Below are positions 235-18,837 of a stretch of DNA of 32,000 bases, piece after piece. Each line of letters starts with the position of its first letter. Within the stretch, counting starts at the first letter, position 1. The DNA lies in assembly GCA_030606485.1 (NCBI GenBank), contig JAUWGH010000003.1, positions 90,001-122,000 of the forward strand, given 5' to 3'. The translations under genes and the position numbers were made by a program. The stretch is from Promethearchaeota archaeon. Lineage in GTDB: Archaea; Asgardarchaeota; Lokiarchaeia; Sigyniarchaeales; SOKP01. The notes under the pieces were generated by a model, which was not told the origin of the DNA, searched no databases, and worked only from the letters and a program-made list of their open reading frames with translations.

Positions 235-1218
235 ATGATAACACCAAAAAAGATTAAAGAAGTTTTAGAACACAATTGTATTAACCTTAGATTCCATGCA
301 CGCGGAGGACAAGGAGGTGTAACTGCTTCAAACTTATGCGTAGAAGCATTTTACGGTTATGGAATTTGCCAGCCTCGTTTTGGAGCTGAAAGAATGGGCA
401 GTCCAACTGAAAGTTATGTGCGGTTAAGTTTAAGCAAGGAGTTGATTAGGTCAAATGAACAAGTCTACGCTCCTCATTTTGTAGCCATTTTGGATGAATC
501 CCTAATGTGGGAGATTAATGTAACTGAGGGACTCCCAAAAGGTGGATGGATAATCATTAATACAGATATGAATCAATTAGAAATTCAAGAATTAATTGAG
601 AGAAAAGATCTAAATATTGCTACAATTCCCGCTACTACAATTGCTTTAGATGTTTTTGGAAGAAATATTACTAATACTATAATTCTTGGTGCATTAATTA
701 GAGTTTCTCAACTTTTCTCATTGGAAGAATTATCGAATGCCATCCAAAATAGATTTAAGGGCTCGATTATCGAAAAAAATATTAAAGCTATAAAACAAGC
801 AATAGATGCAACTTGTGTATATGAAGTAGAAGATGAGATAGATTTCACTGTGGATACTAAAGTAGCTTGGACACAAATTGATCCATTTCTACCTGGATAT
901 GAGGAATTAGATAAAGCGGGTGTATGGTATTGCGATGAAGATGTTATTTCTTATGGTAGTAAACAGGTAAAAACCGGTTCTTGGGGTGAATATGATATAA
1001 TATGGGATAAAGAAACTTGTACTGATTGCGCTCAATGTTGGTATATTTGTCCTGACTTCGCTATTCTAAGAGAGAAAGGTGAGGATGAATTATGGCACAT
1101 GACGGGGGTTGATCAATTTCATTGTAAATCGTGTTTAAATTGTGTGAATATTTGCCCAGTAAATGCCCTATCAAAAAAATTAAAACAAAGACCCGGCACA
1201 TGTGCCGTGGAGGAATAA
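235..1218 (+). CDS. porC: 2-oxoacid (pyruvate-type):ferredoxin oxidoreductase gamma subunit fused to delta (2x[4Fe-4S]) subunit
   Basis: N-terminal gamma motifs RFHARGGQGGVTA and FGAERMGSPTESYVR; C-terminal KTGSWG followed by CTDCAQCWYICP and CKSCLNCVNICP ferredoxin motifs typical of PorD. Confidence 0.92.
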   Translation: MITPKKIKEVLEHNCINLRFHARGGQGGVTASNLCVEAFYGYGICQPRFGAERMGSPTESYVRLSLSKELIRSNEQVYAPHFVAILDESLMWEINVTEGLPKGGWIIINTDMNQLEIQELIERKDLNIATIPATTIALDVFGRNITNTIILGALIRVSQLFSLEELSNAIQNRFKGSIIEKNIKAIKQAIDATCVYEVEDEIDFTVDTKVAWTQIDPFLPGYEELDKAGVWYCDEDVISYGSKQVKTGSWGEYDIIWDKETCTDCAQCWYICPDFAILREKGEDELWHMTGVDQFHCKSCLNCVNICPVNALSKKLKQRPGTCAVEE

Positions 1219-1220
1219 TT

Positions 1221-1228
1221 GGAGGTGA
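1221..1228 (+). promoter_or_regulatory. Shine-Dalgarno site of porA
   Basis: GGAGGTGA ending 7 nt before the ATG at 1236. Confidence 0.8.
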
Positions 1229-1235
1229 AAATTAA

Positions 1236-2459
1236 ATGTCAATAGAACCAATGAGAATATTTTTTAAGGAAATTAAAGAACCTATTGAGACTACAATGAT
1301 TGGAAATTATGCTGTCGCTGGCGGAATAACACAAACTGACCCAGATGTGATATGTGCATTTCCAATTACGCCACAAACTCAATCAGTTGAAGGATTATCC
1401 GACGTTGTGCATCAGGGTAGATTAAAGGCAGCTTTCATTAATGTTGAATCAGAATTGGCGGCTATGAGTTATTCTACAGCAGCATGTGCTGCAGGAGCAA
1501 GAACATTTACTGCAACCGCTTCTCAAGGCTATTTATTAATGGCGGAGGCTTTACCTATGGCAGTTGGTTGGCGTGTTCCATTAACTATGATGATTTCAGC
1601 CAGAGCTTTTAACGCTCCGAATTTATCAATTTGGAACTCTTGGGAATTTGTTTTAATTGATTTTGGTTGGAATTGTATCGTCTCTGAAAATGTTCAAGAG
1701 ACTTATGATTCTGCTATTTTATCCGTGATGATTTCAGACACCTCATTATTTCCCACAATGTTTGTTCATGATGGTTTCATTATATCTCATTCAGTTCAAC
1801 AATTAACATTAATTCCTGATGAGACTGTCCGGAATTTGACTCCGAAAAAACCAAGGCATCAAATTGATCCAGAACATCCAGGAACATGGGGCGGGATTGT
1901 GACTCCTAGCTATTTTATGGAAGGTAGAATGAGATTAGATGTGGATAAAAAGCCAGTTTTAAATCATATTAAAAACGTTTTTGAACGCTTTAAAAAAGCA
2001 ACAGGACGGAAATATGATTTAATTGAAACTTTTAATTTAGATAATTCTTCCAGAACTGCATTTATAACTACGGGTTCCATGTGTGGAAACATTATAAGCT
2101 GGATGACTAAAAATAAAGACATAGGGCTTATTAAAATACGCACTTATCGTCCATTTCCTTATGATGAATTACAAAATATAATCCAAGAACATAATATTGA
2201 AAAATTAATTATTTTTGAGAAATGTGACTCATTAAACAATCTCTTACCGCCATTTTCCTCTTCAATTATGACAGCAGTATATCCTCTAGGAACACTATTT
2301 AGGTCATATATTGTTGGATTAGGTGGACGAGATGTTACGAGGGATGAGTTTAATGTTGCTAAAAAGAATATGGAAAATGTGAAAGATATGAAAGGTCAGC
2401 TCTATATGTATCTTGGAGTAAGAGAGCGAAAAAATAAAATTCATGGGGTGAATATGTAA
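1236..2459 (+). CDS. porA: 2-oxoacid:ferredoxin oxidoreductase alpha subunit
   Basis: GNYAVA, FPITPQT, VESELAAMS, TATASQG, FVHDGFIISH, IKIRTYRPFP and GLGGRDV motifs; lies between the gamma-delta and beta genes. Confidence 0.93.
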   Translation: MSIEPMRIFFKEIKEPIETTMIGNYAVAGGITQTDPDVICAFPITPQTQSVEGLSDVVHQGRLKAAFINVESELAAMSYSTAACAAGARTFTATASQGYLLMAEALPMAVGWRVPLTMMISARAFNAPNLSIWNSWEFVLIDFGWNCIVSENVQETYDSAILSVMISDTSLFPTMFVHDGFIISHSVQQLTLIPDETVRNLTPKKPRHQIDPEHPGTWGGIVTPSYFMEGRMRLDVDKKPVLNHIKNVFERFKKATGRKYDLIETFNLDNSSRTAFITTGSMCGNIISWMTKNKDIGLIKIRTYRPFPYDELQNIIQEHNIEKLIIFEKCDSLNNLLPPFSSSIMTAVYPLGTLFRSYIVGLGGRDVTRDEFNVAKKNMENVKDMKGQLYMYLGVRERKNKIHGVNM

Positions 2460-2461
2460 AA

Positions 2462-3547
2462 ATGTCAAAACCAGAGAAAAATATTATTAAAGTTGAAGAT
2501 TTGCTCGCACGAAATGAAAAATGTAATACGCTATTCTTTAATTACGACAATGAAGCTTTTATGAATACAGGAATTCAAGAATCGGGTGCCACCCCACCAT
2601 TCGCTTCAACAACGACTGGTCCTGCTGGAGAAAAGATTCCTGGTAAAATTGGTGTTAAACAAGATTTAGTTACACCAATGGCATTTTTTGGTGGTAAATC
2701 TATGTTCTTAGCAACTGTAAATCCAGCATATCCTAATGATTTCATGGGAAAAGTAATTGAAGCATTAAAAACAAATGGTGGTGCTTTCATCCAAGCTTAC
2801 TCTGATTGTATGAGAGGATGGCGTCATGCGGCAGAAGATGCTTATAAAATATCAAAAATGGCTACAGATAGTGGATATTGGCCTCTTTATACAGTTAGAA
2901 TTAAAGAAGGTATACCTAAATTTTCATTTTATCGTGGATTAGACGTTGATCGTGATATATTCATTGAATACTTAAAGTCAATGGGTAAGTTTAGACACCT
3001 TTTTAAACCAACTATGAGACAAAAAGAAATAGAAGAAATTATATATTTCACGGAATTACGAAATGAAAGATTGAGAAATTTAATTGCCATTATGGGTGCA
3101 GAGAAACCTAGTGATTTATATAAGTTAAATCGAAAAAAATTTGAGCCACAAATTCATATTCAACCAGGTCATGGTTTATGCCCAGGGTGTGGAGCAGGAA
3201 TGGTGTTAAACCAATTAGCTACCGCAGCAACCCAAGTAGCAGGTAAGAATATAGTTTATGTAAATAATACGAGCTGTAGCGAAGTTTCCACTGCTAAAGA
3301 TAATGTTAGTTCTTGGAATGTTCCATGGGTGCATCATTTATTTGAATCTGGAGCAACTGTGGCGGAAGCAATTTCTACTGCCTATAAAATCCGAAAAACT
3401 AAAGGATTATTTGACGGAGATATTCCATATGTTATTCATATTGGAGGAGATGGTTCCTATTATGATATTGGCTTTCAATTTTTCAAAGCTGCTCTAATTC
3501 GAACCAGTTCTACTATGGAAATGAATGAATATTTAAACCAAAAATAA
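2462..3547 (+). CDS. porB: 2-oxoacid:ferredoxin oxidoreductase beta subunit, circularly permuted
   Basis: Has all beta motifs (YDNEAFMNTGIQ, TPPFASTTT, CMRGW, PGHGLCPGCG, NTSCSEV, GGDGSYYDIGFQ), but the normally N-terminal half is at the C-terminus. Confidence 0.9.
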   Translation: MSKPEKNIIKVEDLLARNEKCNTLFFNYDNEAFMNTGIQESGATPPFASTTTGPAGEKIPGKIGVKQDLVTPMAFFGGKSMFLATVNPAYPNDFMGKVIEALKTNGGAFIQAYSDCMRGWRHAAEDAYKISKMATDSGYWPLYTVRIKEGIPKFSFYRGLDVDRDIFIEYLKSMGKFRHLFKPTMRQKEIEEIIYFTELRNERLRNLIAIMGAEKPSDLYKLNRKKFEPQIHIQPGHGLCPGCGAGMVLNQLATAATQVAGKNIVYVNNTSCSEVSTAKDNVSSWNVPWVHHLFESGATVAEAISTAYKIRKTKGLFDGDIPYVIHIGGDGSYYDIGFQFFKAALIRTSSTMEMNEYLNQK

Positions 3548-3560
3548 TTTTTCTTTTTTT
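3548..3560 (+). terminator. Archaeal-type T-rich terminator after the por operon
   Basis: TTTTTCTTTTTTT directly after the porB stop codon. Confidence 0.5.
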
Positions 3561-3646
3561 AAAACCCTTTCTACCTTATTGTTTTTGAATTCAAAGAATT
3601 AACTTTTTAAATTCATTCAATATAATATAAAATTGGTGTAAATTAA

Positions 3647-4051
3647 ATGATTGATTTAAAAATGATTAATATTAATACCCCCCAACGAGAGATATTAATG
3701 GATATTACAAGAGAGATAAATAATATTGTATCAGAATCTAATATACAAAATGGTGTTTGTCGATTATTTGTTCCACATACAACAGCAGGAATAACCATTA
3801 ATGAAAATGCTGATCCTTCTGTTAAAAAAGATATAATAAATTTTTTAGGAAAACTAATTCCTCAAAACGCCGGATTCAGCCATATGGAGGGAAATTCTGA
3901 TGCTCATATCAAATCCACACTTGTTGGTCCTTCTTTAGAGATCTTAATTAACAATAAAAGATTAGTATTAGGGACGTGGCAAGGAATTATGTTCGCAGAA
4001 TTTGATGGACCTCGGAATAGGAAGCTTCATATTCAATTGCAAGGCGAATAA
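3647..4051 (+). CDS. YjbQ/UPF0047 family protein (secondary thiamine-phosphate synthase family)
   Basis: FVPHTTAGITINENADPSV, HMEGNSDAHIKSTLVG and LGTWQGIMFAEFDGPR signatures. Confidence 0.92.
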   Translation: MIDLKMININTPQREILMDITREINNIVSESNIQNGVCRLFVPHTTAGITINENADPSVKKDIINFLGKLIPQNAGFSHMEGNSDAHIKSTLVGPSLEILINNKRLVLGTWQGIMFAEFDGPRNRKLHIQLQGE

Positions 4052-4391
4052 CTTTTTTAATTACATATTTTAAATTTTGTAGTTGAAATTCTAGAATTTT
4101 ACAAAATAATTTTGTCGGTATTGATAATATTTTTTAAAATTTAATCATAATTACTAGTTTATATTAATTTCCTAAATTATCAACCAGAAATACGTCGCTT
4201 ATTTTTAATTTAATAATTAAAATATATAAATAATAGAAACAATACTTTTTTAAGAGAAATAAAAATAAGATACTGGGAAAAAAATAGAAATTTTTAGAGA
4301 GCTTAGTGAAAATTTGACAAAAATTGAAAGAAAAATGATTTTACAAATTTTATTTGACAAAAATATTTTATAGTTGGTGTATATTTAGAAG

Positions 4392-5047: not shown

Positions 5048-5587
5048 ATGCCTAGTTTCGATTATACCTTTAAAGTGCTTATGTTGGGGGAAGCATCAGT
5101 AGGAAAGACAAGTTTGACGAAACGATATGTCCAAGGTATTTTTAACCCGGATGAGAAGCTGACTATCGGAGTGGATTTCTATATAAAAAATGTTGATGTC
5201 TTAGACAAAAAAGTCAAACTGCAAATATGGGACCTTGGAGGTGAACAGCGATTCCGATTTTTATTACCCACATATTGTTTGGGAGCTAATGCAACTATAT
5301 TTATGTATGACATTACTCGATTAAATACTTTAGAGAATATTCATTCTTGGTTATCAATTGTATATCAAAGAAGTGGATTAATCCCCATTATGTTAGTGGG
5401 TTCTAAGTTAGATCTAGAAAAACATGAAAGATCGGTTCATCGAGATTATGGAATTCAAGTAGCCCAAGAAAATAATTTAGCTGGTTGGATAGAAATATCA
5501 TCTAAAAATAATGTCAATGTAGATAATGTTTTTGAAACTCTTTGTAAATTTATGTTAGAACGAGCAGTAAAAAGGAGTAAATTCTGA
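5048..5587 (+). CDS. Rab-like small GTPase (Ras superfamily)
   Basis: G1 GEASVGKTS, G2 TIGVDF, G3 WDLGGE, G4 GSKLD, G5 ISSK; RabF-like motifs IGVDF, KLQIW, RFRFL, YCLGA, YDIT; no C-terminal Cys. Confidence 0.93.
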   Translation: MPSFDYTFKVLMLGEASVGKTSLTKRYVQGIFNPDEKLTIGVDFYIKNVDVLDKKVKLQIWDLGGEQRFRFLLPTYCLGANATIFMYDITRLNTLENIHSWLSIVYQRSGLIPIMLVGSKLDLEKHERSVHRDYGIQVAQENNLAGWIEISSKNNVNVDNVFETLCKFMLERAVKRSKF

Positions 5588-6639: not shown

Positions 6640-7317
6640 ATGAAGATCATAGTATTCAGCCCTCATCCTGATGATGAGATTTTTGGCTGTGGAGGAAGCA
6701 TATTAAAATGGATTGAAGAAAACCATGACGTTCACGTTATTTATATCTCTGACAATAGAGCGACAATTACTTGGGCAAAAAAGCATGGAAATTTTATTGA
6801 AACTGAAAAAAATAAAAATTTAACTGAAGAACAAGTGGCAAAAATCGGACTTAAAGAGGCAAGAGAAGCTGCAAAATTTTTAGGATTGTCAGAGAAAAAA
6901 GTTCATTTATTTAAATTTCCTGATCAAAAAGTTAAAGATTTTATTGATAAAGGTGTACAACTTGCAAAACCAATTGTAAAGGATGCAGATAGATTTGTTA
7001 TCCCTAGTGCTAATAATGAACACACAGATCATCAAGCTACCTATGAGATTGCAGTAAGAACGGCTGAAGAACTCAAATTAAAAAATCTCGAATTTTTTGT
7101 GTATGCTTTACACAAACCTTTACGAGCAGAAGGCGAGTATTTAGTTAAAATTAAGATGGGTGATTTGCGCCAAAAATTATTTGATGGTTTACAAATTTAT
7201 AAATCTCAATTTTGGTCTAAAGAAATGTCTCGTAACACTCTTTGGGTAAAGGGAAAGCGTAGAGAACGGTTCGGATATTATAAATTTGAAGATATTGGAA
7301 AATATTACAACTTTTAA
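6640..7317 (+). CDS. PIG-L/LmbE family deacetylase, paralogue 1
   Basis: SPHPDDE and EHTDH zinc-binding motifs. Confidence 0.9.
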   Translation: MKIIVFSPHPDDEIFGCGGSILKWIEENHDVHVIYISDNRATITWAKKHGNFIETEKNKNLTEEQVAKIGLKEAREAAKFLGLSEKKVHLFKFPDQKVKDFIDKGVQLAKPIVKDADRFVIPSANNEHTDHQATYEIAVRTAEELKLKNLEFFVYALHKPLRAEGEYLVKIKMGDLRQKLFDGLQIYKSQFWSKEMSRNTLWVKGKRRERFGYYKFEDIGKYYNF

Positions 7318-7336: not shown

Positions 7337-8011
7337 TTAGAAATTATAAAATTTACCAACATCTTTTAGTTTATAATAACCATATCTGTCTCTTCGTTTT
7401 CCTTTAACCCAAGAGCTTTGAGGACCCAGATCTTTAGTATAAAATTGTGATTTATGAAATTTTAAGGCTTCATACGCTTTAAATCTTAACTCTCCTACCT
7501 TAACCTTTATTAAATGTTCTCCTTCTGCTTTTAAGGGACAATGAACTGCAAATATATAAAATTCAAGTTGTTTAAGGTTAAGTTCTTCTGCTACCTTAAT
7601 AGCAATATCGTGAGTAGCTTGGTGATCGGGGTGTTCATTATTAGCACTTGGAATTACAAACCTATCGGCATCTTTTACAATATTTTTTATTTGCTCTACT
7701 GCCTCATGTATATAATTTTTAAGTTCTTGATCATAAAATTTTAGAAAATGTCGATTTTCTTTTTTTATTCTTAAGAATTCGGCGGATGCATCTGCTTCTT
7801 CTAATCTTATTTCAGCAAGCTGATTTTCGTCTATTCTAGTTTCTTTACAATCCTCAAGTTCATTTTTCTCTCTTGCTTTTCTATATCCTGCTCTTCCATC
7901 AGTAAACCAAATTATGTGAATGGTATGTCCATCTTCGAGCCATCTTAGAATTGAGCCACCTGCTGCAAAGATTTCATCATCAGGATGAGGTGCAAAAATA
8001 ATAATTTTCAT
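7337..8011 (-). CDS. PIG-L/LmbE family deacetylase, paralogue 2
   Basis: APHPDDE and EHPDH motifs; GGAGG SD at 8019-8023; starts 15 nt after the carB stop. Confidence 0.9.
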   Translation of the reverse strand: MKIIIFAPHPDDEIFAAGGSILRWLEDGHTIHIIWFTDGRAGYRKAREKNELEDCKETRIDENQLAEIRLEEADASAEFLRIKKENRHFLKFYDQELKNYIHEAVEQIKNIVKDADRFVIPSANNEHPDHQATHDIAIKVAEELNLKQLEFYIFAVHCPLKAEGEHLIKVKVGELRFKAYEALKFHKSQFYTKDLGPQSSWVKGKRRDRYGYYKLKDVGKFYNF

Positions 8012-8026
8012 AACTAAACCTCCCTA

Positions 8027-11000
8027 TTACCAATATGGCATTTCGCCATTATGATATTCATTTAATGATTTAATGGATATTTTTCTTTCTCGAATCTGTT
8101 CAATTGCATTAAATATTGCATATGCTAATTGCAGATTTATTATAACTGGGATATTATATTCCACTGCAAATCTACGAATTTCATACTCATCTTCCATTAT
8201 TCTCTTATATTTTTCTGCTTCCATTGCAATTGTTGGGATGTTTATTACCATGTTAATTTTTCCTTCTCTTATATAAGTTAAGATATTCGGAAATTCTCCA
8301 ATTTCTTTTACTTTTAATAATTTAAAGTTTGATATTCCTGCAGATTCAAGAGCTTTTGAAGTATGTTCTGTCGCATAAATTGAAAAACCTAAAGATTTGA
8401 TTTTGCGAGCTAAAGGAATAATATCCTTCTTAAGTTTTTCTCCACCAACTGTAATTAAAATATTACCATTCTCAATAGGAATTTTTAAATCGGTTGATTC
8501 TAATGCTTTTATTAAAGCATCAGGAAAATCATCTCCAATACATGCAACTTCTCCTGTTGATGCCATCTCAACACCCAAAACAGGGTCGGCTCCATCTAAG
8601 CGCATAAATGAAAATTGGGGGCATTTAATGGTCACGAAATTTCCAGTTGGTATATTCATTATTTTTGGATCAATTTTTTTTCCAAGAATGACTTCAGCAG
8701 CAATTTTCATAAGATTAATTCCGCGAGCTTTTGAAACTAGAGGCATAGAACGGCTTGAGCGCAAATTACATTCTATAACATATAATTTCCCTTCTTTTAA
8801 TAAATATTGGATATTAAATGGTCCCCTTATTTTTAATGCTAAAGCGATTTTTTTCGATATAGAGATTAAATTATCAATAATATCATTAGATATTGTCTGA
8901 GGGGGGATTGCCATTGTTGCATCTCCACTATGTATCCCAGCATTCTCAATATGTTCAATAATCGCACCTATAAATACAGTCTCACCGTCGCTAACACCGT
9001 CACATTCAATTTCACGTGAGTCGGTAAAAAATTTTGTGATAACAACTGGATTATCTTTAGATACTTTAGAAGCGATATCTAAAACGTGCCGTAAGGTTTG
9101 GGGATCATGTGCTACTCTCATTGCAGCACCACTTAATACGAAAGAAGGTCGAACTAACACAGGGTATCCAATTTCCTCTGCAAATTTTAACACTTCATCT
9201 TTTTCCTCAAGACTATTCCATATAGGTTGTAATATTGCTAAGTGATCAAGTAGGGCACTAAATTTTTTCCTATTTTCTGCGTTATTGATACTAATCCCTT
9301 GAGTACCTAATAATCTGAGATTAGTTTTTCTAAAAAACTCATTATATTTTTGGATTTTAACCGCTAAATTATTTGCAATTTGACCACCAACCGATACAAC
9401 TACACCATAACCTTTTTCCTTCTCGCAGATATCTACAACACGTTCGCCCGATAATTCTTCGAAATATAATTTATCTGAAATATCATAATCAGTTGAAACC
9501 GTTTCAGGATTATAATTAATCATAATTACTTGATCAACATTTAATTCCTTGAGTTTCCATACCATATTAACGCAACACCAATCAAATTCTACAGAAGAAC
9601 CGATTCTATAAGTTCCTGAGCCTAAAACAATTATTTTTTGAAGGTTCTCAGTGGTTTCTTTTTCATAATCAATATCATCTTCCATTGCAGAATATGTAAG
9701 ATAAAGATAATTTGTTTGTGCTGGCCATTCAGCTGCCAGTGTATCCATCTGATTTGTATAGGGAATTATATTATATCTTTTTCGAAGTCGTCGAATAGTG
9801 ATTGTATCAAGCCCCATTATTGTTGCTATTTGTCCATCTGAAAACCCAAAACGTTTCGCCTTTCTTAACTGATATTCTTTTTCTTCATCTGAAGACCTAA
9901 GAAGATTTAATCTTTTCAATTCTCTTTCTATATTTATTATATTTTCAATTTTATGGAGAAACCATTTATCAATTCGCGATAAACGGTAAATTTCATTGAT
10001 GGAAATTCCTTTTTTAATAGCTTCCGCCACTCTAAAAATTCTTTTATCCGTTGGATGCCTTAATTCATTCTTTAATTCATTATAATTATCAATTGGTTCT
10101 AAGTCATTACCAACAATTCCTTTCATATCGATATCCAACATTCTTATTGCTTTTTGTAATACTTCTTCGAAAGTTCGTCCAATTGCCATAACTTCTCCAA
10201 CTGATTTCATTTGTGTTCCAATGTGTCTATCTACTCGTCGAAATTTGTCTAAATCCCATCGGGGATATTTTAAAACTATATAATCAATTGAAGGTTCAAA
10301 ACATGCCGTTGTAATACCAGTTACAGTATTTTTTAATTCTGTTAACAGATATCCCAGTGCTAATTTAGTAGCAAAATAGGCTAAAGGATAACCTGTTGCT
10401 TTTGAGGCAAGTGCAGATGAGCGAGACAACCTTGCATTTATTTCAATTGCTTGAAATTCTTTTGATATTGGATTTAATGCATATTGAATATTACATTCTC
10501 CAATAATACCCAAGTTTTGAACAACTCTTATTGATGCACATCTCATCATTTGATATTCTTCATTTGTTAGTGTTTGAGTGGGAGCAACAACAATGCTCTC
10601 TCCAGTATGTATCCCCATAGGATCAACATTTTCCATACTACAATTAATAATACAATTGTTAGATACATCTCTAACAACTTCAAATTCGATTTCTTTCCAT
10701 CCCCACACTGATTCTTCTACTAAAATTTGATGTATTATTGATTGAGCTAACGCTCTTTTCGCAAATACTTCAAATTCTTTTAGATTTTCAACAATACCTG
10801 ACCCTCTACCACCTAATGTATATGCAACTCGAATCATTAATGGAAAACCCAATTCTTCTGCTGCTTTCAATGCATCTTGATAATTATCTACTGCAAAACT
10901 TTTAGGGCAAACTACACCAGATTTTTCCATTGCTTTAACAAATAAGTCTCTATCTTCAGTTGCAATTATTGCTTCGACAGGTGTTCCCAATACTCTTACA

Positions 11001-11335
11001 TTATATTTTTCCAATATTTTCTTTTCTGCTAATTCAACACCGATATTTAATGCTGTTTGACCACCAAATGATAATAAAATCCCATCAGGTCTTTCTTTTT
11101 TAATTACTTTTTCAACATAACGCATATTAATTGGGAGTAAATATATTCTATCTGATAATTGGGGATCAGTTTGAATTGTCGCGATATTTGGGTTTATTAA
11201 AATAGTATAAATTCCTTCCTCCTTAAGTGCCTTTAATGCTTGAGAACCAGAGTAGTCAAATTCACCTGCTTGACCAATTTTTATTGAACCTGAGCCTAGT
11301 AATAACACCTTTTTTATTGTATTATCAAAAGGCAT
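8027..11335 (-). CDS. carB: Carbamoyl-phosphate synthase large subunit
   Basis: IGQAGEFDYSGSQA, duplicated ATP-grasp domains (GIHTGES / GIHSGDA), RLSRSSALASKATG, C-terminal MGS-like domain; 1102 aa. Confidence 0.98.
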   Translation of the reverse strand: MPFDNTIKKVLLLGSGSIKIGQAGEFDYSGSQALKALKEEGIYTILINPNIATIQTDPQLSDRIYLLPINMRYVEKVIKKERPDGILLSFGGQTALNIGVELAEKKILEKYNVRVLGTPVEAIIATEDRDLFVKAMEKSGVVCPKSFAVDNYQDALKAAEELGFPLMIRVAYTLGGRGSGIVENLKEFEVFAKRALAQSIIHQILVEESVWGWKEIEFEVVRDVSNNCIINCSMENVDPMGIHTGESIVVAPTQTLTNEEYQMMRCASIRVVQNLGIIGECNIQYALNPISKEFQAIEINARLSRSSALASKATGYPLAYFATKLALGYLLTELKNTVTGITTACFEPSIDYIVLKYPRWDLDKFRRVDRHIGTQMKSVGEVMAIGRTFEEVLQKAIRMLDIDMKGIVGNDLEPIDNYNELKNELRHPTDKRIFRVAEAIKKGISINEIYRLSRIDKWFLHKIENIINIERELKRLNLLRSSDEEKEYQLRKAKRFGFSDGQIATIMGLDTITIRRLRKRYNIIPYTNQMDTLAAEWPAQTNYLYLTYSAMEDDIDYEKETTENLQKIIVLGSGTYRIGSSVEFDWCCVNMVWKLKELNVDQVIMINYNPETVSTDYDISDKLYFEELSGERVVDICEKEKGYGVVVSVGGQIANNLAVKIQKYNEFFRKTNLRLLGTQGISINNAENRKKFSALLDHLAILQPIWNSLEEKDEVLKFAEEIGYPVLVRPSFVLSGAAMRVAHDPQTLRHVLDIASKVSKDNPVVITKFFTDSREIECDGVSDGETVFIGAIIEHIENAGIHSGDATMAIPPQTISNDIIDNLISISKKIALALKIRGPFNIQYLLKEGKLYVIECNLRSSRSMPLVSKARGINLMKIAAEVILGKKIDPKIMNIPTGNFVTIKCPQFSFMRLDGADPVLGVEMASTGEVACIGDDFPDALIKALESTDLKIPIENGNILITVGGEKLKKDIIPLARKIKSLGFSIYATEHTSKALESAGISNFKLLKVKEIGEFPNILTYIREGKINMVINIPTIAMEAEKYKRIMEDEYEIRRFAVEYNIPVIINLQLAYAIFNAIEQIRERKISIKSLNEYHNGEMPYW

Positions 11336-12481
11336 CTATTTTAGAACCCCCATAAATTTTAAAAACATATCAAATAGAAATGCTTGAGTATCTTTAGGTC
11401 CTGGAGATGATTCGGGATGAAATTGAAGGCTAAAAATAGGTTTAGTTTTATGGATAATCCCTTCATTTGTTTTATCATCAGGATTGTAAAAGAATTCCTT
11501 AAAGCTTACTTCTTCCAAATTATCAGTATTAATTCCATATCCATGATTCTGAGTAGTAATAAAGCATCTTCCCGTTGGATTATGGATTACTGATTTATTT
11601 GCTCCTCGATGTCCAAATTTAAGTTTATAAGTTTTCGCTCCAGCACCTAAACCAATTATTTGATCACCCAAACAAATTCCCATTGTAGGAATAGAATTTT
11701 CGATTAAATTTTCAGCAACTTCAATTGCACTTTTACATTTCAAGGGATCTCCCGGTCCATTTGAAATTAGAACACCGTTTGGATTATAATCCATGATTTG
11801 GTCATAACTAAAATCATGGGGCAGTAAAATTACATTCAAATTTCTTTTCAACAAATTTCTTATAATATTAAGTTTAGTGCCCAAATCTAAAACAATCACA
11901 GTCCCAATAGGATTTGAGGGAGTGAAATGTCTTGCTCTTACAGTAGAAACTTCACTAACTAAATCTTTATTATTTGGATCTGAAATTTCTTTAACTTCCT
12001 CTTTTATTAGTTTGATATCTGGTTTTTCACCAGGGTTAAATACTTGCAATAATCCTAATTTTACTCCTTCATCTCGAATTATCTTAGTTAAAGCCCTAGT
12101 ATCAACCCATTCAATTCCAGGGACGTCTTGTTCTTGAAGAAAATCGTCTAAAGATTTCACACTTTCATAGTGACTAGGTATCTTACAATATTCATTTACT
12201 ACTAATCCTTTAATTTTAATACTATCTGACTCGAAGCATTTATGTATTCCATATTCATCCTTTATCCAATCTGGAACACCATAGTTTCCAATTAAGGGAT
12301 AAGTCATAATACATATTTGTTCATGAAAAGAGGGATCTGTAATAGTTTCATTATAACCGACCATACTGGTTGTAAATACTATTTCTCCACAAACCTTTTT
12401 TGTAGCCCCAAATCCAATTCCTTCAAAATATCTTCCATCTTGAAACATTAAAATTGCGGGACGGTCATTCTTTAAATGCAT
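11336..12481 (-). CDS. carA: Carbamoyl-phosphate synthase small (glutaminase) subunit
   Basis: GEIVFTTSMVGY, TYPLIGNYGV, SNGPGDP, GICLG (catalytic Cys), QNHGY, QFHPE; TAG stop abuts the carB ATG. Confidence 0.97.
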   Translation of the reverse strand: MHLKNDRPAILMFQDGRYFEGIGFGATKKVCGEIVFTTSMVGYNETITDPSFHEQICIMTYPLIGNYGVPDWIKDEYGIHKCFESDSIKIKGLVVNEYCKIPSHYESVKSLDDFLQEQDVPGIEWVDTRALTKIIRDEGVKLGLLQVFNPGEKPDIKLIKEEVKEISDPNNKDLVSEVSTVRARHFTPSNPIGTVIVLDLGTKLNIIRNLLKRNLNVILLPHDFSYDQIMDYNPNGVLISNGPGDPLKCKSAIEVAENLIENSIPTMGICLGDQIIGLGAGAKTYKLKFGHRGANKSVIHNPTGRCFITTQNHGYGINTDNLEEVSFKEFFYNPDDKTNEGIIHKTKPIFSLQFHPESSPGPKDTQAFLFDMFLKFMGVLK

Positions 12482-12517
12482 TTTATCCCTCTATAACTCA
12501 TTTCTCAATATTTTTTT

Positions 12518-14074
12518 TTACTCATATTCAATTGTAGATGGAGGTTTATTGGATATATCAAATACTACTCTATTGAATCCCTTAACCTCATTAATAATTC
12601 TTGTTGAAATTTCTTCTAATAAATTCCAATCAATTTTAGCAAAATTAGCAGTCATAGCATCTATGCTTTGAACTGCTCGAATTGCACAAATATATTCATA
12701 TGTTCTATGATCTCCCATAACTCCAACTGTTTTTATTGGAAGGAATACCGGAAATATTTGCCAAATATCATCATAAATCCCAGCATTTTTAATTTCTTCT
12801 TGAATTATTTGATCAGCTTCTCTTATCATACTTAATTTTTCCTCATCAACAGGACCGACACACCTTACGGCTAATCCAGGACCAGGAAATGGGTGTCTTT
12901 TTATTGATTCTTCGGGTAATCCAAGTTCTATACCTATTTTTCTAACTTCATCTTTATATAAATCTTTAAGTGGTTCAATTATATCAAAATTTAATTTTTC
13001 TGGCAAGATTACATTATGATGAGATTTAATTTTTGAAGCAAATTTACTTGTAGCTTTAGATTCGACTCGATCAGGATATATTGTTCCTTGTGCTAAAAAT
13101 TTAATATTTGGATATTTGGTTTCTAATTCCTTAGTTTTTTGTTCAAAAACTTCAATAAATGAGTTTGCAATTATTATTCTTTTTTTTTCAGGATCAGATA
13201 CTCCCTTAAGGCGCTTCATAAATAAGTTCTTTGCATCAATATAATGAAAATTTTTAAATTTTAACGTTCTTTTGAAAAATTCTTGGACTTCTAATTCCTC
13301 GTTTTTACGTAATAAATTATTATTTACAAAAATACAGTGCAATTTATCACCAATAGCTTGATGGAGTAATATTGCAGTGACTGATGAATCTACACCTCCA
13401 CTCAGTCCTAAAATAACCCTATTGTCTCCTACTTCTCCTCTGATCTTATCAATTGTATGTTCAATCCAATTTTCTAATTTCCATTCTTTTTTACATTTGA
13501 CTATTTTAAATAAAAAATTGGAAAATATTTTTTCTCCACTGATAGTATGCTTTACTTCTGGATGGAATTGCACTCCGTATATTTTGAGTTTTTCATTTCC
13601 ATAAGCTGCAATTGGACAATTATCAGTTCTTGCTAAAACTTGAAATCCTGAGGGAAGATCTAGCACTTGGTCTAAATGAGACATCCATACAGTTTCTTCG
13701 TCTAATAAAAGTTCGAATAATCCCTTATGTTCAAGAACATGTAATATTGTCTTTCCATATTCTTTACTTTCCCTCGGCTCGATTTTCCCACCAAGATGGT
13801 GAATTATTAAATGAAAACCATAACAAATTCCTAAAATTGGAATTTTATTCTGGTGTATAAATTTATAAATATTCTCAGATAGCTTGAGAGAATCTTCCGA
13901 ATATACACTACTGGGACCTCCAGATAATATTATCGCTTTAGGTTCAATACTGTTAATTTTTTTAAAATCAATATCATAAGGAAAAACTTCAGAGTAAACA
14001 TTTAAATCTCTTATTCTTCTAGCAATTAGGTGGCTATATTGACCTCCAAAATCAAGAATTATAACTGTATCCAT
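12518..14074 (-). CDS. guaA: GMP synthase (glutamine-hydrolysing), single-chain GATase + ATP pyrophosphatase
   Basis: LDFGGQY, GICYG, QFHPEV, LGLSGGVDS, IKSHHNV, RHPFPGPGLAVR, KPPSTIEYE. Confidence 0.98.
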   Translation of the reverse strand: MDTVIILDFGGQYSHLIARRIRDLNVYSEVFPYDIDFKKINSIEPKAIILSGGPSSVYSEDSLKLSENIYKFIHQNKIPILGICYGFHLIIHHLGGKIEPRESKEYGKTILHVLEHKGLFELLLDEETVWMSHLDQVLDLPSGFQVLARTDNCPIAAYGNEKLKIYGVQFHPEVKHTISGEKIFSNFLFKIVKCKKEWKLENWIEHTIDKIRGEVGDNRVILGLSGGVDSSVTAILLHQAIGDKLHCIFVNNNLLRKNEELEVQEFFKRTLKFKNFHYIDAKNLFMKRLKGVSDPEKKRIIIANSFIEVFEQKTKELETKYPNIKFLAQGTIYPDRVESKATSKFASKIKSHHNVILPEKLNFDIIEPLKDLYKDEVRKIGIELGLPEESIKRHPFPGPGLAVRCVGPVDEEKLSMIREADQIIQEEIKNAGIYDDIWQIFPVFLPIKTVGVMGDHRTYEYICAIRAVQSIDAMTANFAKIDWNLLEEISTRIINEVKGFNRVVFDISNKPPSTIEYE

Positions 14075-14340
14075 TTTAATTTAAAATTATTCTGTATAAG
14101 GCGATATTTACTTAATATTGTTAGCTTGATATCACTAATATTTTCTTATTATAAATTATATCCTAATAAAAGATTAATAATTAACTCGTTTTAACACAAT
14201 TTAATAAAAATATGAAACTTTAACCAAAAATTACAGTTCAAAATCATTATAAAGAGAAATAAAGCTAATCAGATGACAATCTATTCTTAATATAAAAATT
14301 TTAAAATATATTAAAAATTCATGAAAAATATTGAGAATTT

Positions 14341-15666
14341 TTATAATTTTTTAATATATCTATCAAATTCCCAATTAGAAACAACTTTCCTGTATAAATC
14401 AAATTCTTCTAATTTAGCCCAGAGAAAATTTCTGAATGGTCTATCACCAAAAACTCTTTTCATAAGTTCACTCTTTTCATATTCTTCAAGTGCTTCATAA
14501 AGATTCGCTGGAAGTGCCTTAATTCCTCTTTTTTTCATTTCTTTTGTAGAGATTTTATACACATTGAAATCACTAGGTTCTGGTGGCTCAATCTTTTGCT
14601 TTATCCCTTCTAATCCCGTTGCCAATAACACTGAAAATTGTAAATATGGATTTCCTGCAGGATCAGGACATCGTATTTCACATCGAGCTCCCGACTTAGT
14701 TGGAAAGCTTGGTACGCGAATTAATGGAGATCGATTCTTAAAACCCCACGCTAAATAAATTGGCGCTTCATAACCGGGAACTAAACGTTTATATGAGTTT
14801 GGCCAGCTGCACAAAACAGCACACATTTCCCTCCCATATTTTATTTGCCCTCCAACAAAATATTTCATAGTTTGGGAGATATGATTCTCATCATTTTCAT
14901 CATAAAAGATATTTTCTCCATTTTTCCATAAAGATTGATGTACATGCATCCCAGAGCCATTGATATTTTGGAAAGGTTTTGGCATAAAAGATGCGATACA
15001 ATTATATTGTGCTGCTACTACTTTTACAATCATTTTTAGCCAAACCGTATGATCTGCAGTTTTTAAGGCTGTATCATATTTAAAATCAATCTCATTTTGT
15101 CCTTCTGCAACCTCATGGTGTAATGTTTCGATTTCAATTCCGTATCCTTTCGCATACTCAGCCATATCTCTTCTCATTTTTTCGTCTATAAGATGTGGGT
15201 CATAATCAAAATATCCGCGTAAATCTCTAGGCTTGATTGCTTCCTCTTCATTTAATATGAAAAATTCTAATTCTGGCGCACACATAAATTCGTAGCCCAT
15301 TTCTTGAACTTCTTTATAGGTTTTTTGAAGAATATATCTCGGATCTCCTTCAAATCTTTTACCATCAGGTTCATATATATCGCATATAAATCCACATTCA
15401 TCTATTTTAGGAGAATTCCATGGAATGATGTGAAAAGTAAATGGATCTGGAATTGCAACCATATCAGATTCCTCTATTGAGCCATACCCAGTAATTGATG
15501 AACCATCGAAATTTTCCCCTTCTTTTAATATTGATTCAATTCGATTAATATTAACTCCAAAGCTTTTTACAATCCCATTAATTTCAGTGAATTCTAAACT
15601 TGCAAATTTTATCTCTTGATCTTCTATGATTTTTAGAATCTCTTCAATTTTTTCTTCTCTTTTCAT
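14341..15666 (-). CDS. glnA: Glutamine synthetase type I (likely GSI-alpha)
   Basis: FDGSSI, HHEVAEGQNEIDF, MPKP...NGSGMHVHQSL, NSYKRLVPGYEAP, NRSPLIRVP, EIRCPDPAGNPYL; 441 aa. Confidence 0.96.
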   Translation of the reverse strand: MKREEKIEEILKIIEDQEIKFASLEFTEINGIVKSFGVNINRIESILKEGENFDGSSITGYGSIEESDMVAIPDPFTFHIIPWNSPKIDECGFICDIYEPDGKRFEGDPRYILQKTYKEVQEMGYEFMCAPELEFFILNEEEAIKPRDLRGYFDYDPHLIDEKMRRDMAEYAKGYGIEIETLHHEVAEGQNEIDFKYDTALKTADHTVWLKMIVKVVAAQYNCIASFMPKPFQNINGSGMHVHQSLWKNGENIFYDENDENHISQTMKYFVGGQIKYGREMCAVLCSWPNSYKRLVPGYEAPIYLAWGFKNRSPLIRVPSFPTKSGARCEIRCPDPAGNPYLQFSVLLATGLEGIKQKIEPPEPSDFNVYKISTKEMKKRGIKALPANLYEALEEYEKSELMKRVFGDRPFRNFLWAKLEEFDLYRKVVSNWEFDRYIKKL

Positions 15667-15752
15667 AAGTTACACGCAAAAATACTTTATCTTATATCTT
15701 AAAATAGTAAGAGAGATTTAATAAAAAATTGGTAATTAATTTATAAATTAAC

Positions 15753-17435
15753 CTATTTTTTATTTTTATAGTTTATTGATGCTTTTATGAATGCTGTGTA
15801 GCAAGGAGAGGGAGCATACGGTTTACTTTTGAATTCTGGATGGAACTGCACCCCAACCATCCAATGATCTTCACGATTTAATTCAATACTATTAATAATT
15901 TCTCCAGTTTCATCTCTACTTGAAATTATTAATCCCTTTTGCTTAGTATCATCATCAATGTATTTTTCAATTATATGATATCTGTGACGAAATCGCTCAA
16001 TTATTTCTTCAGTTTGATATGCATCATATAATCTCGTATCTTTTTTTACCTTTATTTTTAGCCCACCTAATCTCATCGTGCCCCCTTTTGATTTGATTTT
16101 TTTCTGACTTTCAAGCAAATCAATAACTGGATAAGGTGTATTTTGGTCTATTTCTGTCGAATTTGCGTTTTTCAAACCTAAATATTTTCTGCAAAATGCA
16201 ATGAAAAATAATTGAGCTCCAAAACAAACACCCAAATAAGGGACTTTATTTTCCATTGCAAATTCAGCTGTTTTTATCATCCCTTCTACTGCTCGCTCCC
16301 CAAATCCGGGTGTTAATAAAATTCCATCGCATTCTTTTAATTCCTTTTCAATATCTGTTTCTTCTGTAATATTGATCATTTTCAAATTTGCAATGTATCC
16401 TTCATGAGCTGCAGCCTGTTCTAATGCACTATTTATTGAAATGTAGGAATCAGAAATGTTAAAATATTTTCCAGGCATACCAATTGTAACTGTTTCTTTT
16501 GTATTTTTATAAAGATTAACCATTTTTTGCCATTCAGAATAATTATTAACTGTACTATAAGTTACTAATTTTGCTTTCAGGTCTAAGAGTTCACATAAAT
16601 AATCTCCTAATTTTTGATCTTCAAATAATAAAGGAAGTTCATAAACCACATCTAAATCAGGATCTGAAATTACTGCTTCTAATGGAACATTTGTAAATAA
16701 TGAAATTTTTTCCTTAATTTTATTATCTAAAGGTTTGCTTGATCTACCGATTAAAACATCAGGCTGTAAACCAGCAGCTTGTAAAGCCTTAACTGAGTGT
16801 TGAGTAGGTTTTGTTTTATGTTGCATAATAACACTAGAATATGGAATCAAAGTAACATGAATTAGAGCAATGCTTCTTTTTGATAATTCCAGTCTTAATT
16901 GTCGAAAACTTTCTAAAAATATCTGAGACTCAATATCTCCAACAGTTCCTCCACACTCTACTAATAAAACATCTAAATCCTCCTCACCTGCAATTTTTCT
17001 TAATCGATCCTTTATAATATTCGTACAATGAGGAATTATTTGAACAGTTCTTCCAAGGAATTTACCTTCTCTTTCTCTTAAAATAGTTGAAAGATAAATC
17101 TGTCCAGAGGTAATATTATGAGAAGGATGAATATTTTCGCCCCAAAATCTTGAATACGAACCAAAATCCTGGTCAATTTCTGATATTCTATAAATATATT
17201 CATCTGAAGTAGGTACAGGTTTAAAATCCCAAACTTGTTCGGTGACAAAGCATTCTCCATGTTCAATGGGATTGAGTGTTCCAGGGTCTACATTTAAATA
17301 GGGATCGATCTTTACGCCAGAGATTTTAAACCCTCGAAATTGAAATAATTTTCCCAAACTAGCAGTTACAATGCCTTTACCAATCCCTGACATAACCCCC
17401 CCTGTAACAAACACGAATTTACAATTAGATTGCAT
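15753..17435 (-). CDS. pyrG: CTP synthase
   Basis: FVTGGVMSGIGKG, KIDPYLNVDPGT, ECGGTVGDIES, KTKPTQHSV, GVCFG, GGTMRLG, RFRHRY, QFHPEF. Confidence 0.97.
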   Translation of the reverse strand: MQSNCKFVFVTGGVMSGIGKGIVTASLGKLFQFRGFKISGVKIDPYLNVDPGTLNPIEHGECFVTEQVWDFKPVPTSDEYIYRISEIDQDFGSYSRFWGENIHPSHNITSGQIYLSTILREREGKFLGRTVQIIPHCTNIIKDRLRKIAGEEDLDVLLVECGGTVGDIESQIFLESFRQLRLELSKRSIALIHVTLIPYSSVIMQHKTKPTQHSVKALQAAGLQPDVLIGRSSKPLDNKIKEKISLFTNVPLEAVISDPDLDVVYELPLLFEDQKLGDYLCELLDLKAKLVTYSTVNNYSEWQKMVNLYKNTKETVTIGMPGKYFNISDSYISINSALEQAAAHEGYIANLKMINITEETDIEKELKECDGILLTPGFGERAVEGMIKTAEFAMENKVPYLGVCFGAQLFFIAFCRKYLGLKNANSTEIDQNTPYPVIDLLESQKKIKSKGGTMRLGGLKIKVKKDTRLYDAYQTEEIIERFRHRYHIIEKYIDDDTKQKGLIISSRDETGEIINSIELNREDHWMVGVQFHPEFKSKPYAPSPCYTAFIKASINYKNKK

Positions 17436-17916: not shown

Positions 17917-18837
17917 TTGAAACTTAAGAGAAATAGAAATTGGTATATAAGAATGCCATATAAAATTTTAGAAAAAAGAGAATTGGGAGAGAGCGGTATC
18001 GTATTTGAAATGGTATTGGAAACTCCATTCATTGCCAAAAAAGCCTATGCTGGTAATTTTGTTTTAGTTCGAATTAATGAAACGGGAGAGCGGATTCCTT
18101 TGACAATAGCTGATTATGATAGAGATAAGGGAACAATAACAATAGTAGTTCAAATTGCTGGAAAAAGTACAAAATTACTTTTCCATCAAAATGTTGGAGA
18201 TTCGATTCTTGATGTTGTTGGTCCCTTAGGAAATAAAATTCACATTAAAAAATATGAATATCCCGTTGTGATTATTGGAGGTGGAGTGGGAATAGCACCT
18301 TGTTACCCGCAGGCAAAGGAATTAAAAGAAGTAGGAAATAAAATTATTTCAATATTAGGCGCCAGAAATAAGGAGTTGTTATTTTGGAGAGATAAAATGG
18401 GATCTGTAAGTGATGAATTAATTATTTGTACAGATGATGGATCAGAGGGGATAAAAGGTGTTGTAACAGAACCATTAAAGGATTTATTAAAAAGAGAAAA
18501 ATTGAGTATTGTAATTGCCATTGGACCATTAATTATGATGAAATACGTGGCTCTTACAACTAATGGTTTTGATGGATTACCTAAAGTTAAAACAATTGTA
18601 TCCTTAAATACAATCATGATTGACGGTACTGGAATGTGCGGCGGTTGTCGTTTTCCAACAATTGATGGAAAAATAGGATTTGCATGTGTTGATGGACCTG
18701 ATGTTGATGGACATATTGTGGATTTTGATAATCTTTTAAAGCGTGCAAAAAGATTTGAAACGCAAGAAAAAGAATCACTAGAATTATATGATCGTGAATG
18801 TAAAGCATTAAAAAAATTTTATAAGGAGAATGGTTAA
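17917..18837 (+). CDS. NfnA/SudB-type subunit (FAD/NAD-binding, [2Fe-2S]); probable true start ATG 17953
   Basis: GERIPLTIAD, DVVGPLG, IGGGVGIAP, TDDGS, DGTGMCGGCR...CVDGP; overlaps the next gene by 8 nt. Confidence 0.92.
   Translation: MKLKRNRNWYIRMPYKILEKRELGESGIVFEMVLETPFIAKKAYAGNFVLVRINETGERIPLTIADYDRDKGTITIVVQIAGKSTKLLFHQNVGDSILDVVGPLGNKIHIKKYEYPVVIIGGGVGIAPCYPQAKELKEVGNKIISILGARNKELLFWRDKMGSVSDELIICTDDGSEGIKGVVTEPLKDLLKREKLSIVIAIGPLIMMKYVALTTNGFDGLPKVKTIVSLNTIMIDGTGMCGGCRFPTIDGKIGFACVDGPDVDGHIVDFDNLLKRAKRFETQEKESLELYDRECKALKKFYKENG

Follow-up and report, generated by a model that had tools for sequence, protein, structure and literature searches.

The GDG-x25-N signature is a textbook hallmark of all ThDP enzymes. 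ThDP superfamilies vary in domain order (PYR-PP versus PP-PYR, e.g., decarboxylases versus transketolases), implying that the site tolerates different chain connectivities. These changes move whole domains, whereas in the 2-oxoacid:ferredoxin oxidoreductase (OFOR) β subunit described here the chain is cut within the PP domain, in the ThDP motif. A literature search found no description of a permuted OFOR β subunit or of a PP domain interrupted at its ThDP motif.

The described protein closest to this β subunit in sequence and fold is PorB of the Methanosarcina acetivorans PFOR (9bt4 chain C), a four-subunit archaeal enzyme. Common to both are the CxxC…C…C, GDG, and DNE motifs and a PYR-domain α partner, but the present chain is swapped at the GDG/DNE loop, carries a ~32-residue linker between the old termini, and is longer (361 aa versus ~296); further, γ and δ are fused here into one subunit, unlike in the four-subunit archaeal PFOR. 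The oxalate oxidoreductase of Moorella thermoacetica (5c4i, 5exd, 5exe) also has a fused domain III + V subunit, but its β is in canonical order and its α pocket differs from the ARA…LSIW motif found here; the equivalog cut-offs for this enzyme are missed widely (137 versus 500, 171 versus 590, and 64 versus 230 bits). Single-chain PFORs (Desulfovibrio africanus 1b0p, Moorella 6cin) have homologous Mg and cluster ligands in domain VI, but carry all domains in one 1,200-aa chain with domain VI in canonical order. The permuted β descends from PorB-type OFOR β subunits and would work like them.

Order of the two halves in the β subunit

The window (the whole 32,000-nucleotide stretch of DNA analyzed, from a Promethearchaeota archaeon) contains three translationally coupled + strand genes, porGD, porA, and the permuted porB (Table 1), which very probably encode a three-subunit OFOR with a naturally permuted β. 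The operon order γδ, α, permuted β, including the γδ fusion, is kept in 13 of the 15 loci of the most distant members, and α is the best-conserved subunit in distant loci (59–71% identity). Of the NCBIfam models, PorC_KorC matches porGD at 151 bits, passing its cut-off of 81, and PorD_KorD at 55.8 bits; PorA_Arch matches porA at 286 bits, under the 550 cut-off, and porA aligned to 9bt4_B at 8.1e-51.

Table 1. Features of the OFOR operon, in window positions
Feature	Position	Strand	Remarks
porGD: fused γ (CoA-binding domain III) + δ (2x[4Fe-4S] ferredoxin domain V), 327 aa	235..1218	+	Pfam POR 3.6e-28 and two Fer4 domains
porA: α (PYR domain I + domain II), 407 aa	1236..2459	+	Pfam POR_N 2.8e-53 and PFOR_II
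Permuted porB: β, PP domain VI, 361 aa + stop	2462..3547	+	Begins 2 nt past the porA stop
New N-terminal segment, aa 1-24	2462..2533	+	28 residues up to D29, equal to the canonical GDG-to-DNE spacing
Canonical C-terminal half, aa 25-193	2534..3040	+	D29-N30-E31 Mg/diphosphate motif (nt 2546-2554), N35, fourth cluster ligand C116 (nt 2807-2809)
Linker, old C-terminus to old N-terminus, aa 194-225	3041..3136	+	Between the two PDB-aligned stretches
Canonical N-terminal half, aa 226-346	3137..3499	+	C240-x-x-C243 (nt 3179-3190), C272 (nt 3275-3277), G329-D330-G331 (nt 3446-3454), post-GDG helix
New C-terminal tail, aa 347-361	3500..3544	+	Partly conserved (MN.YL)

A phmmer search of the permuted porB product against all PDB chains gave its best match to 9bt4_C (E 2.6e-42, far beyond chance) in two stretches of swapped order: residues 226–346 align with 9bt4_C 3–114, which holds CxxC, the third Cys, and GDG, and residues 25–193 align with 9bt4_C 121–282, which holds DNE..NTG and the fourth Cys. 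The oxalate oxidoreductase β, 5c4i_C, likewise matches in two swapped stretches, and the NCBIfam PorB model (NF008819) hits the chain as two separate stretches, at 199 bits versus a cut-off of 405. Because both the PDB chains and the family model match in this way, the permutation is a fact of the sequence, and we read permuted porB as a natural circular permutation of an OFOR β subunit with new termini inside the GDG-x25-DN ThDP/Mg motif. Collinearity with the family model, i.e., a contiguous GDG-x(25-30)-N, is absent: GDG is found ~300 residues downstream of DN, with GDG (329–331) ~31–33 residues from the C-terminal end and D29-N30 ~28–29 residues from the N-terminal end. G329-D330-G331 and D29-N30-E31 align with the corresponding motifs of 9bt4_C and 1b0p_A, and the PFOR ligands CxxC, C, and C are matched in the alignment by C240, C243, C272, and C116. 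The sequence-only reading had claimed just such a PorB, cut inside the ThDP/Mg motif, and had proposed its alignment to PorB HMMs as a check; the swapped stretches bear the claim out. The motifs are likewise at the places it gave, YDNEAF from nt 2543 (aa 28), PGHGLCPGCG from nt 3164 (aa 235 of the chain), and GGDGSYYDIGFQ from nt 3443 (aa 328 of the chain), and all four cluster Cys are retained, as it stated. The β chain starts just ahead of the DNE half of the ThDP/Mg motif, proceeds through the canonical C-half and a structured ~32-residue linker into the canonical N-half, and ends shortly past GDG and its helix.

The assembly behind the window is of metagenome type, with 13 contigs, and in another genome (G258) an apparent α-β fusion, a 715-aa open frame, was rejected because the frame runs, as X, across a scaffold gap of 100 N; an assembly or scaffolding artifact, in which an ordinary porB had its two halves put together in reverse order, is nonetheless so improbable as to be negligible. 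When aligned on window 1200–4100, contigs of two other, independent studies span 2307–3330 (with 0 differences) and 2166–3330, and each runs unbroken from porA into porB and across the internal junction at 3041–3136, such that the misassembly which the sequence-only reading had named as a possible refutation is not upheld. The same order recurs in 189 proteins from four repositories (NCBI, JGI, ENA, and Logan) and in single-contig genomes, the frame is open, with the same start context in 29 orthologous loci, and the linker region is under purifying selection (dN/dS 0.03–0.16 for aa 194–232 among same-genus orthologs). Two short metatranscriptome contigs (95–99% identity), covering 2659–2852 and 2907–3078, give a weak hint of transcription of permuted porB.

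Distribution and origin of the permuted order

The 189 homologs, retrieved by a word-index search, are 51–94% identical to permuted porB; among those listed, almost all are full-length (~361 aa), and the NCBI records name these proteins “hypothetical protein”. In a survey of 400 genomes of the phylum, with a same-order full-length match defined by E below 1e-120, such a match was observed in ~107 of the 134 genomes of the window's family and in 22 of the 26 genomes from other families of the class (single-contig ones included), i.e., in ~130 of 160 for the class. With one genome (G075) set aside, the ~240 genomes of other classes gave no same-order full-length ortholog, but only two-piece matches to canonical β subunits. 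The G075 match lies on a 2.8-kb contig, 70–83% identical to the window's operon, in a bin that is ~8% contaminated, and was rejected as most likely a binning error. Since some of the ~26 family genomes without a full-length match to this query are 99–100% complete, the permuted enzyme seems to be dispensable.

An exhaustive HMMER search of 1.84 billion representative proteins found one other full-length 50%-identity cluster with this order (P0123, 53% identity), together with fragments; every remaining match was in canonical order. A rare permutation had been claimed from the sequence, with a search of Asgard and other genomes suggested, and the HMMER search agrees with it: a single clade of those representatives carries the order. 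When 185,579 species genomes were scanned by sequence pattern, 138 carried the permuted gene, and the 80 that were listed are MAGs labeled Promethearchaeota, Promethearchaeia, or other Asgard names, plus one Nanopelagicaceae bacterium. The last, recorded as “Candidatus Nanopelagicaceae bacterium”, is a contig (DATKTW010000155.1) whose permuted porB is 75% identical, and it probably comes from a mislabeled or contaminated bin. On the sequences surveyed, the permuted β is confined to one Asgard class (Lokiarchaeia-type), with a single origin. Three orthologs of permuted porB contain one in-frame TGA each; two of these matches are full-length and ~30–40 nt longer than usual (G162:C1:39240-40352 and G274:C195:2920-4041), and the third (G273:C59:6172-7026) is partial, covering residues 2–276.

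In a tree of 98 β domains (quick search, midpoint-rooted), for which the permuted sequences were re-ordered for alignment only, the permuted sequences, 26 in number, group together as a single clade (SH-aLRT 100) with a stem of 1.21 changes per column and short internal branches. The clade falls inside a supported group (98) with canonical β subunits of other Asgard classes and without the canonical paralogs of its own genome; its sister relation is tentative, owing to the quick search, the midpoint rooting, and the long branch. The canonical β subunits of other Asgard classes were considered as direct unpermuted orthologs and rejected: they lie in ordinary porCDAB operons whose α is only 30–35% identical, which makes them relatives only, and for this reason no close unpermuted ortholog is known. 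At three loci of another Asgard class (L049, L055, and L058, from genomes G119, G117, and G122), a second OFOR with a fused γδ (309–340 aa) and an α lies beside a canonical porCDAB operon, with a canonical β running divergently from these two genes; γδ fusion in Asgard OFORs therefore occurs without β permutation.

The permutation appears to have arisen once, most simply via tandem duplication and trimming of both ends. The canonical GDG-to-DNE spacing is 28 in 81 of 87 β subunits, and the permuted family has 26–30 residues before DNE and 31–36 from GDG to the end, segment lengths that fit such a route. To look for relics of the duplication, we compared the N-terminal residues and the C-tail with shuffles, using a PSSM built on the canonical GDG-to-DNEAYMNTG stretch. 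The C-terminal DIGFQF.K.A..R segment matches the profile of the canonical post-GDG helix (p<0.0005), whereas N-terminal residues 4–20 matched the canonical helix no better than shuffles did in 25 family members (p 0.09–0.94), and the C-tail (aa 347–361) was indistinguishable from shuffles with respect to the canonical strand and DNE. The resemblances of MNEY to DNEA and of LLARN to the helix were dropped, as neither beat shuffles. A breakpoint helix at both ends, as the sequence-only reading had it, thus finds support for the C-terminal copy and none for the N-terminal “LLARN”. Among proteins of 633–2000 aa, the search for a tandem β-β intermediate returned only canonical single-chain PFOR, a blank that is weak evidence. 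Of the earlier proposal of duplication followed by trimming, then, the lengths and the C-terminal helix are in agreement, and the relics at the N-terminal end and in the C-tail and the tandem intermediate were not found; with no intermediate and no significant relic in the N-terminal segment, the route is still one that we infer.

The same two blanks, i.e., no tandem-duplicate form and no relic of the canonical helix in the N-terminal segment, would be expected if instead the gene had split at the GDG/DNE loop and its half-genes had been reordered and re-fused, a history we consider rather unlikely. The 26–30 residues before DNE equal the canonical 28-residue spacer, and the full helix is present at the C-terminal end, as duplication and trimming predicts. 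Genuine split β subunits were not found either. Proteins consisting only of the C-half were examined as fission intermediates and rejected: three have no start (P0201, P0233, P0257), one begins 8 bases off a contig edge (P0203), and one lies on an odd 3.6-kb contig and is uninterpretable (P0259). As these proteins are fragmentary or uninterpretable, they give no evidence for fission, and tandem duplication with trimming is the history we prefer.

Conservation, predicted structure, and substrate

Across 25 homologs, with identities as low as 52%, no change is seen at D29, N30, E31, N35, C116, C240, C243, C272, G329, D330, and G331, nor at D335, I336, G337, Q339, F340, K342, and R347 of the post-GDG helix. 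Permuted porB is under purifying selection: compared with three same-genus orthologs, its dN/dS is 0.08–0.10 at dS 0.41–0.78, the GDG-bearing half is the most constrained (0.04–0.05), and the N-terminal segment is constrained too.

The AF2 model of the permuted β (pTM 0.86) places a strand (6–10), a helix (11–15), and a second strand (21–27) in the N-terminal segment, and a helix (187–211) followed by a strand (212–221) at the linker (pLDDT 87–89). The C-terminal tail has a pLDDT of 50–55, and the loops around the cofactor site (35–65 and 275–282) are below 50. Foldseek ranks 9bt4 chain C first, and in Foldseek and VIA-align comparisons, which follow sequence order and take one half at a time, each half of the model superposes on the matching half of solved β subunits. 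The folded domain is likely to be the same as that of canonical PorB, with the Mg-diphosphate held by D330, near the C-terminal end, and N30, near the N-terminal end. By alignment, these residues correspond to Asp963 and Thr991 of D. africanus PFOR, and C240, C243, C272, and C116 to Cys812, 815, 840, and 1071 of the single-chain enzyme; from the homology to Asp963 and Thr991 it would follow that the two chain termini jointly build the Mg-diphosphate site.

Modeling of the heterotrimer had been suggested with the sequence-only reading, and the pair of α and permuted β was modeled. The complex scored 0.78 versus 0.00 for the best of 3 controls; among 80 solved complexes 58 attained this mark, and among 110 mismatched pairs 2 did. 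At least 99% of contacts are shared between runs and partner pLDDT is at least 84; the predicted interface is formed by β 262–358, including the post-GDG helix, and α 37–108, around the catalytic Glu helix. The model supports α-β binding, although, because PFOR and OOR complexes are already solved, its pass may reflect these look-alikes and not be independent evidence.

Within the complex, the permuted β would act as the PP domain, binding the ThDP-diphosphate and the proximal [4Fe-4S] cluster, and a small 2-oxoacid (pyruvate-type) would be oxidized with CoA, yielding acyl-CoA, CO2, and reduced ferredoxin. For each of the three subunits the top NCBIfam model is a pyruvate one (PorB, PorA_Arch, and PorC), and no equivalog cut-off is reached; the shortfalls of β (199 versus 405) and α (286 versus 550) mark a divergent enzyme with an uncertain substrate. 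Residues T45, E73, R123, and I132 of α align with the PFOR motifs ITP, SE, ARA, and LSI, are all invariant in 18 orthologs, and correspond to Thr31, Glu64, Arg114, and Ile123 of the D. africanus enzyme. The genome holds three other strong α-type paralogs, two of them adjoining canonical β subunits. Given the pyruvate models, the missed equivalog cut-offs, and these paralogs, we read the enzyme as an extra, divergent OFOR, probably pyruvate-type or acting on a small 2-oxoacid, and probably of conventional function; pyruvate-type is our best guess for the substrate, with a roughly even chance of being right.

Two further readings of the function bear on this assignment. An active permuted OFOR with a non-pyruvate substrate, such as 2-oxobutyrate, branched-chain 2-oxoacids, glyoxylate/oxalate, or aryl-glyoxylate, is a real possibility, if somewhat below an even one, given that hits were also obtained to models for VorB, oxalate oxidoreductase, and phenylglyoxylate dehydrogenase, that none of the equivalog models passes, and that the γδ fusion resembles that of oxalate oxidoreductase. 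Cultured Asgard archaea have, moreover, been proposed to live by a 2-oxoacid-centered catabolism that oxidizes several amino-acid-derived 2-oxoacids (PMC7015854), although the top-scoring models for every subunit are pyruvate ones and the α pocket has ARA…LSIW as in PFOR, unlike the oxalate enzyme. A non-catalytic or repurposed paralog, which no longer binds ThDP productively and has a structural, regulatory, or purely electron-transfer role, is very unlikely. It would suit the long stem branch, the failed curated cut-offs, the dispensability of the gene in some complete genomes, the canonical OFOR paralogs in the same genome, and the low confidence of the cofactor loops in the AF2 model, but all Mg/diphosphate and cluster ligands are invariant across the family, dN/dS is lowest in the GDG-bearing half, and the α partner retains its catalytic Glu and substrate-binding residues. 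With ligands and α catalytic residues thus kept, a dead enzyme is not expected, and an active, extra OFOR remains the reading we prefer.

Neighboring genes and implications

Permuted porB is followed, after 100 nt, by a gene of the UPF0047 (YjbQ) family (window 3647–4051, +). Homologs occur in the short flanks of 11 of 29 same-family loci (L005–L033), adjoining porB in 3 same-genus loci and ~0.9 kb off in 8, and none was found near permuted porB in the distant loci. Weak thiamine-phosphate synthase activity has been described for members of this family; if this gene has it, it would be an interesting neighbor for a ThDP enzyme. Further along the window, a 179-aa ORF (5048–5587, +) has an N-terminus like that of a small Ras/Rab-type GTPase when judged by eye (G1 motif GEASVGKT, and DLGGEQ); such GTPases are typical of Asgard archaea. 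Two convergent paralogous ORFs of ~225 aa (6640–7317, +, and 7337–8011, −), with an N-terminal HPDDE motif and a near-identical C-terminus, look by eye like PIG-L/LmbE-type deacetylases. The region 8027–17435 (−) is an ordinary run of glutamine-dependent nitrogen/nucleotide genes: carbamoyl-phosphate synthase large and small chains, GMP synthase, glutamine synthetase, and CTP synthase. A DHODB-type Fe-S subunit (17917–18837, +) precedes a 912-aa protein (18830–21568, +) in which Fer4, FrhB/FdhB N- and C-domains, a DPD-type 4Fe-4S domain, and a pyridine-nucleotide-disulphide oxidoreductase are fused; an F420/ferredoxin-type module is thereby joined to a GltD/NfnB-like one, an unusual combination. 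The stretch 25205–31998 encodes a 1,125-aa protein with a heparinase II/III-like domain, a DUF2961 protein, and, continuing past the window end, a protein with a caspase domain (Peptidase_C14).

A conserved natural enzyme with the halves of its ThDP signature at opposite ends of the chain would mean that the cofactor site tolerates a break exactly there, and for protein engineering the permuted β is a natural system, already at hand, in which to test the effects of permutation on stability and on the binding of the cofactor. That the permutation is adaptive and not neutral is doubtful; with both chain ends at the ThDP-Mg site and long-stem change in α and β, it may give a new property, candidates being cofactor binding that is gated or allows exchange, a changed sensitivity to oxygen or redox state, or a new substrate, and the enzyme would then be a distinct functional OFOR class specific to Lokiarchaeia-type Asgard archaea.

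The name “hypothetical protein” at NCBI is likely explained by collinear models scoring below their cut-offs, and metabolic reconstructions of Loki-type genomes can consequently miscount or miss the permuted OFOR. Its confinement to one class makes permuted porB a clean, synapomorphy-like taxonomic marker. In Asgard archaea, to which eukaryotes are more closely related than to any other known group, energy conservation has been proposed to center on OFORs (PMC7015854), and an extra pyruvate-type or small-2-oxoacid OFOR would fit the catabolism proposed for the cultured members of this group (PMC7015854).
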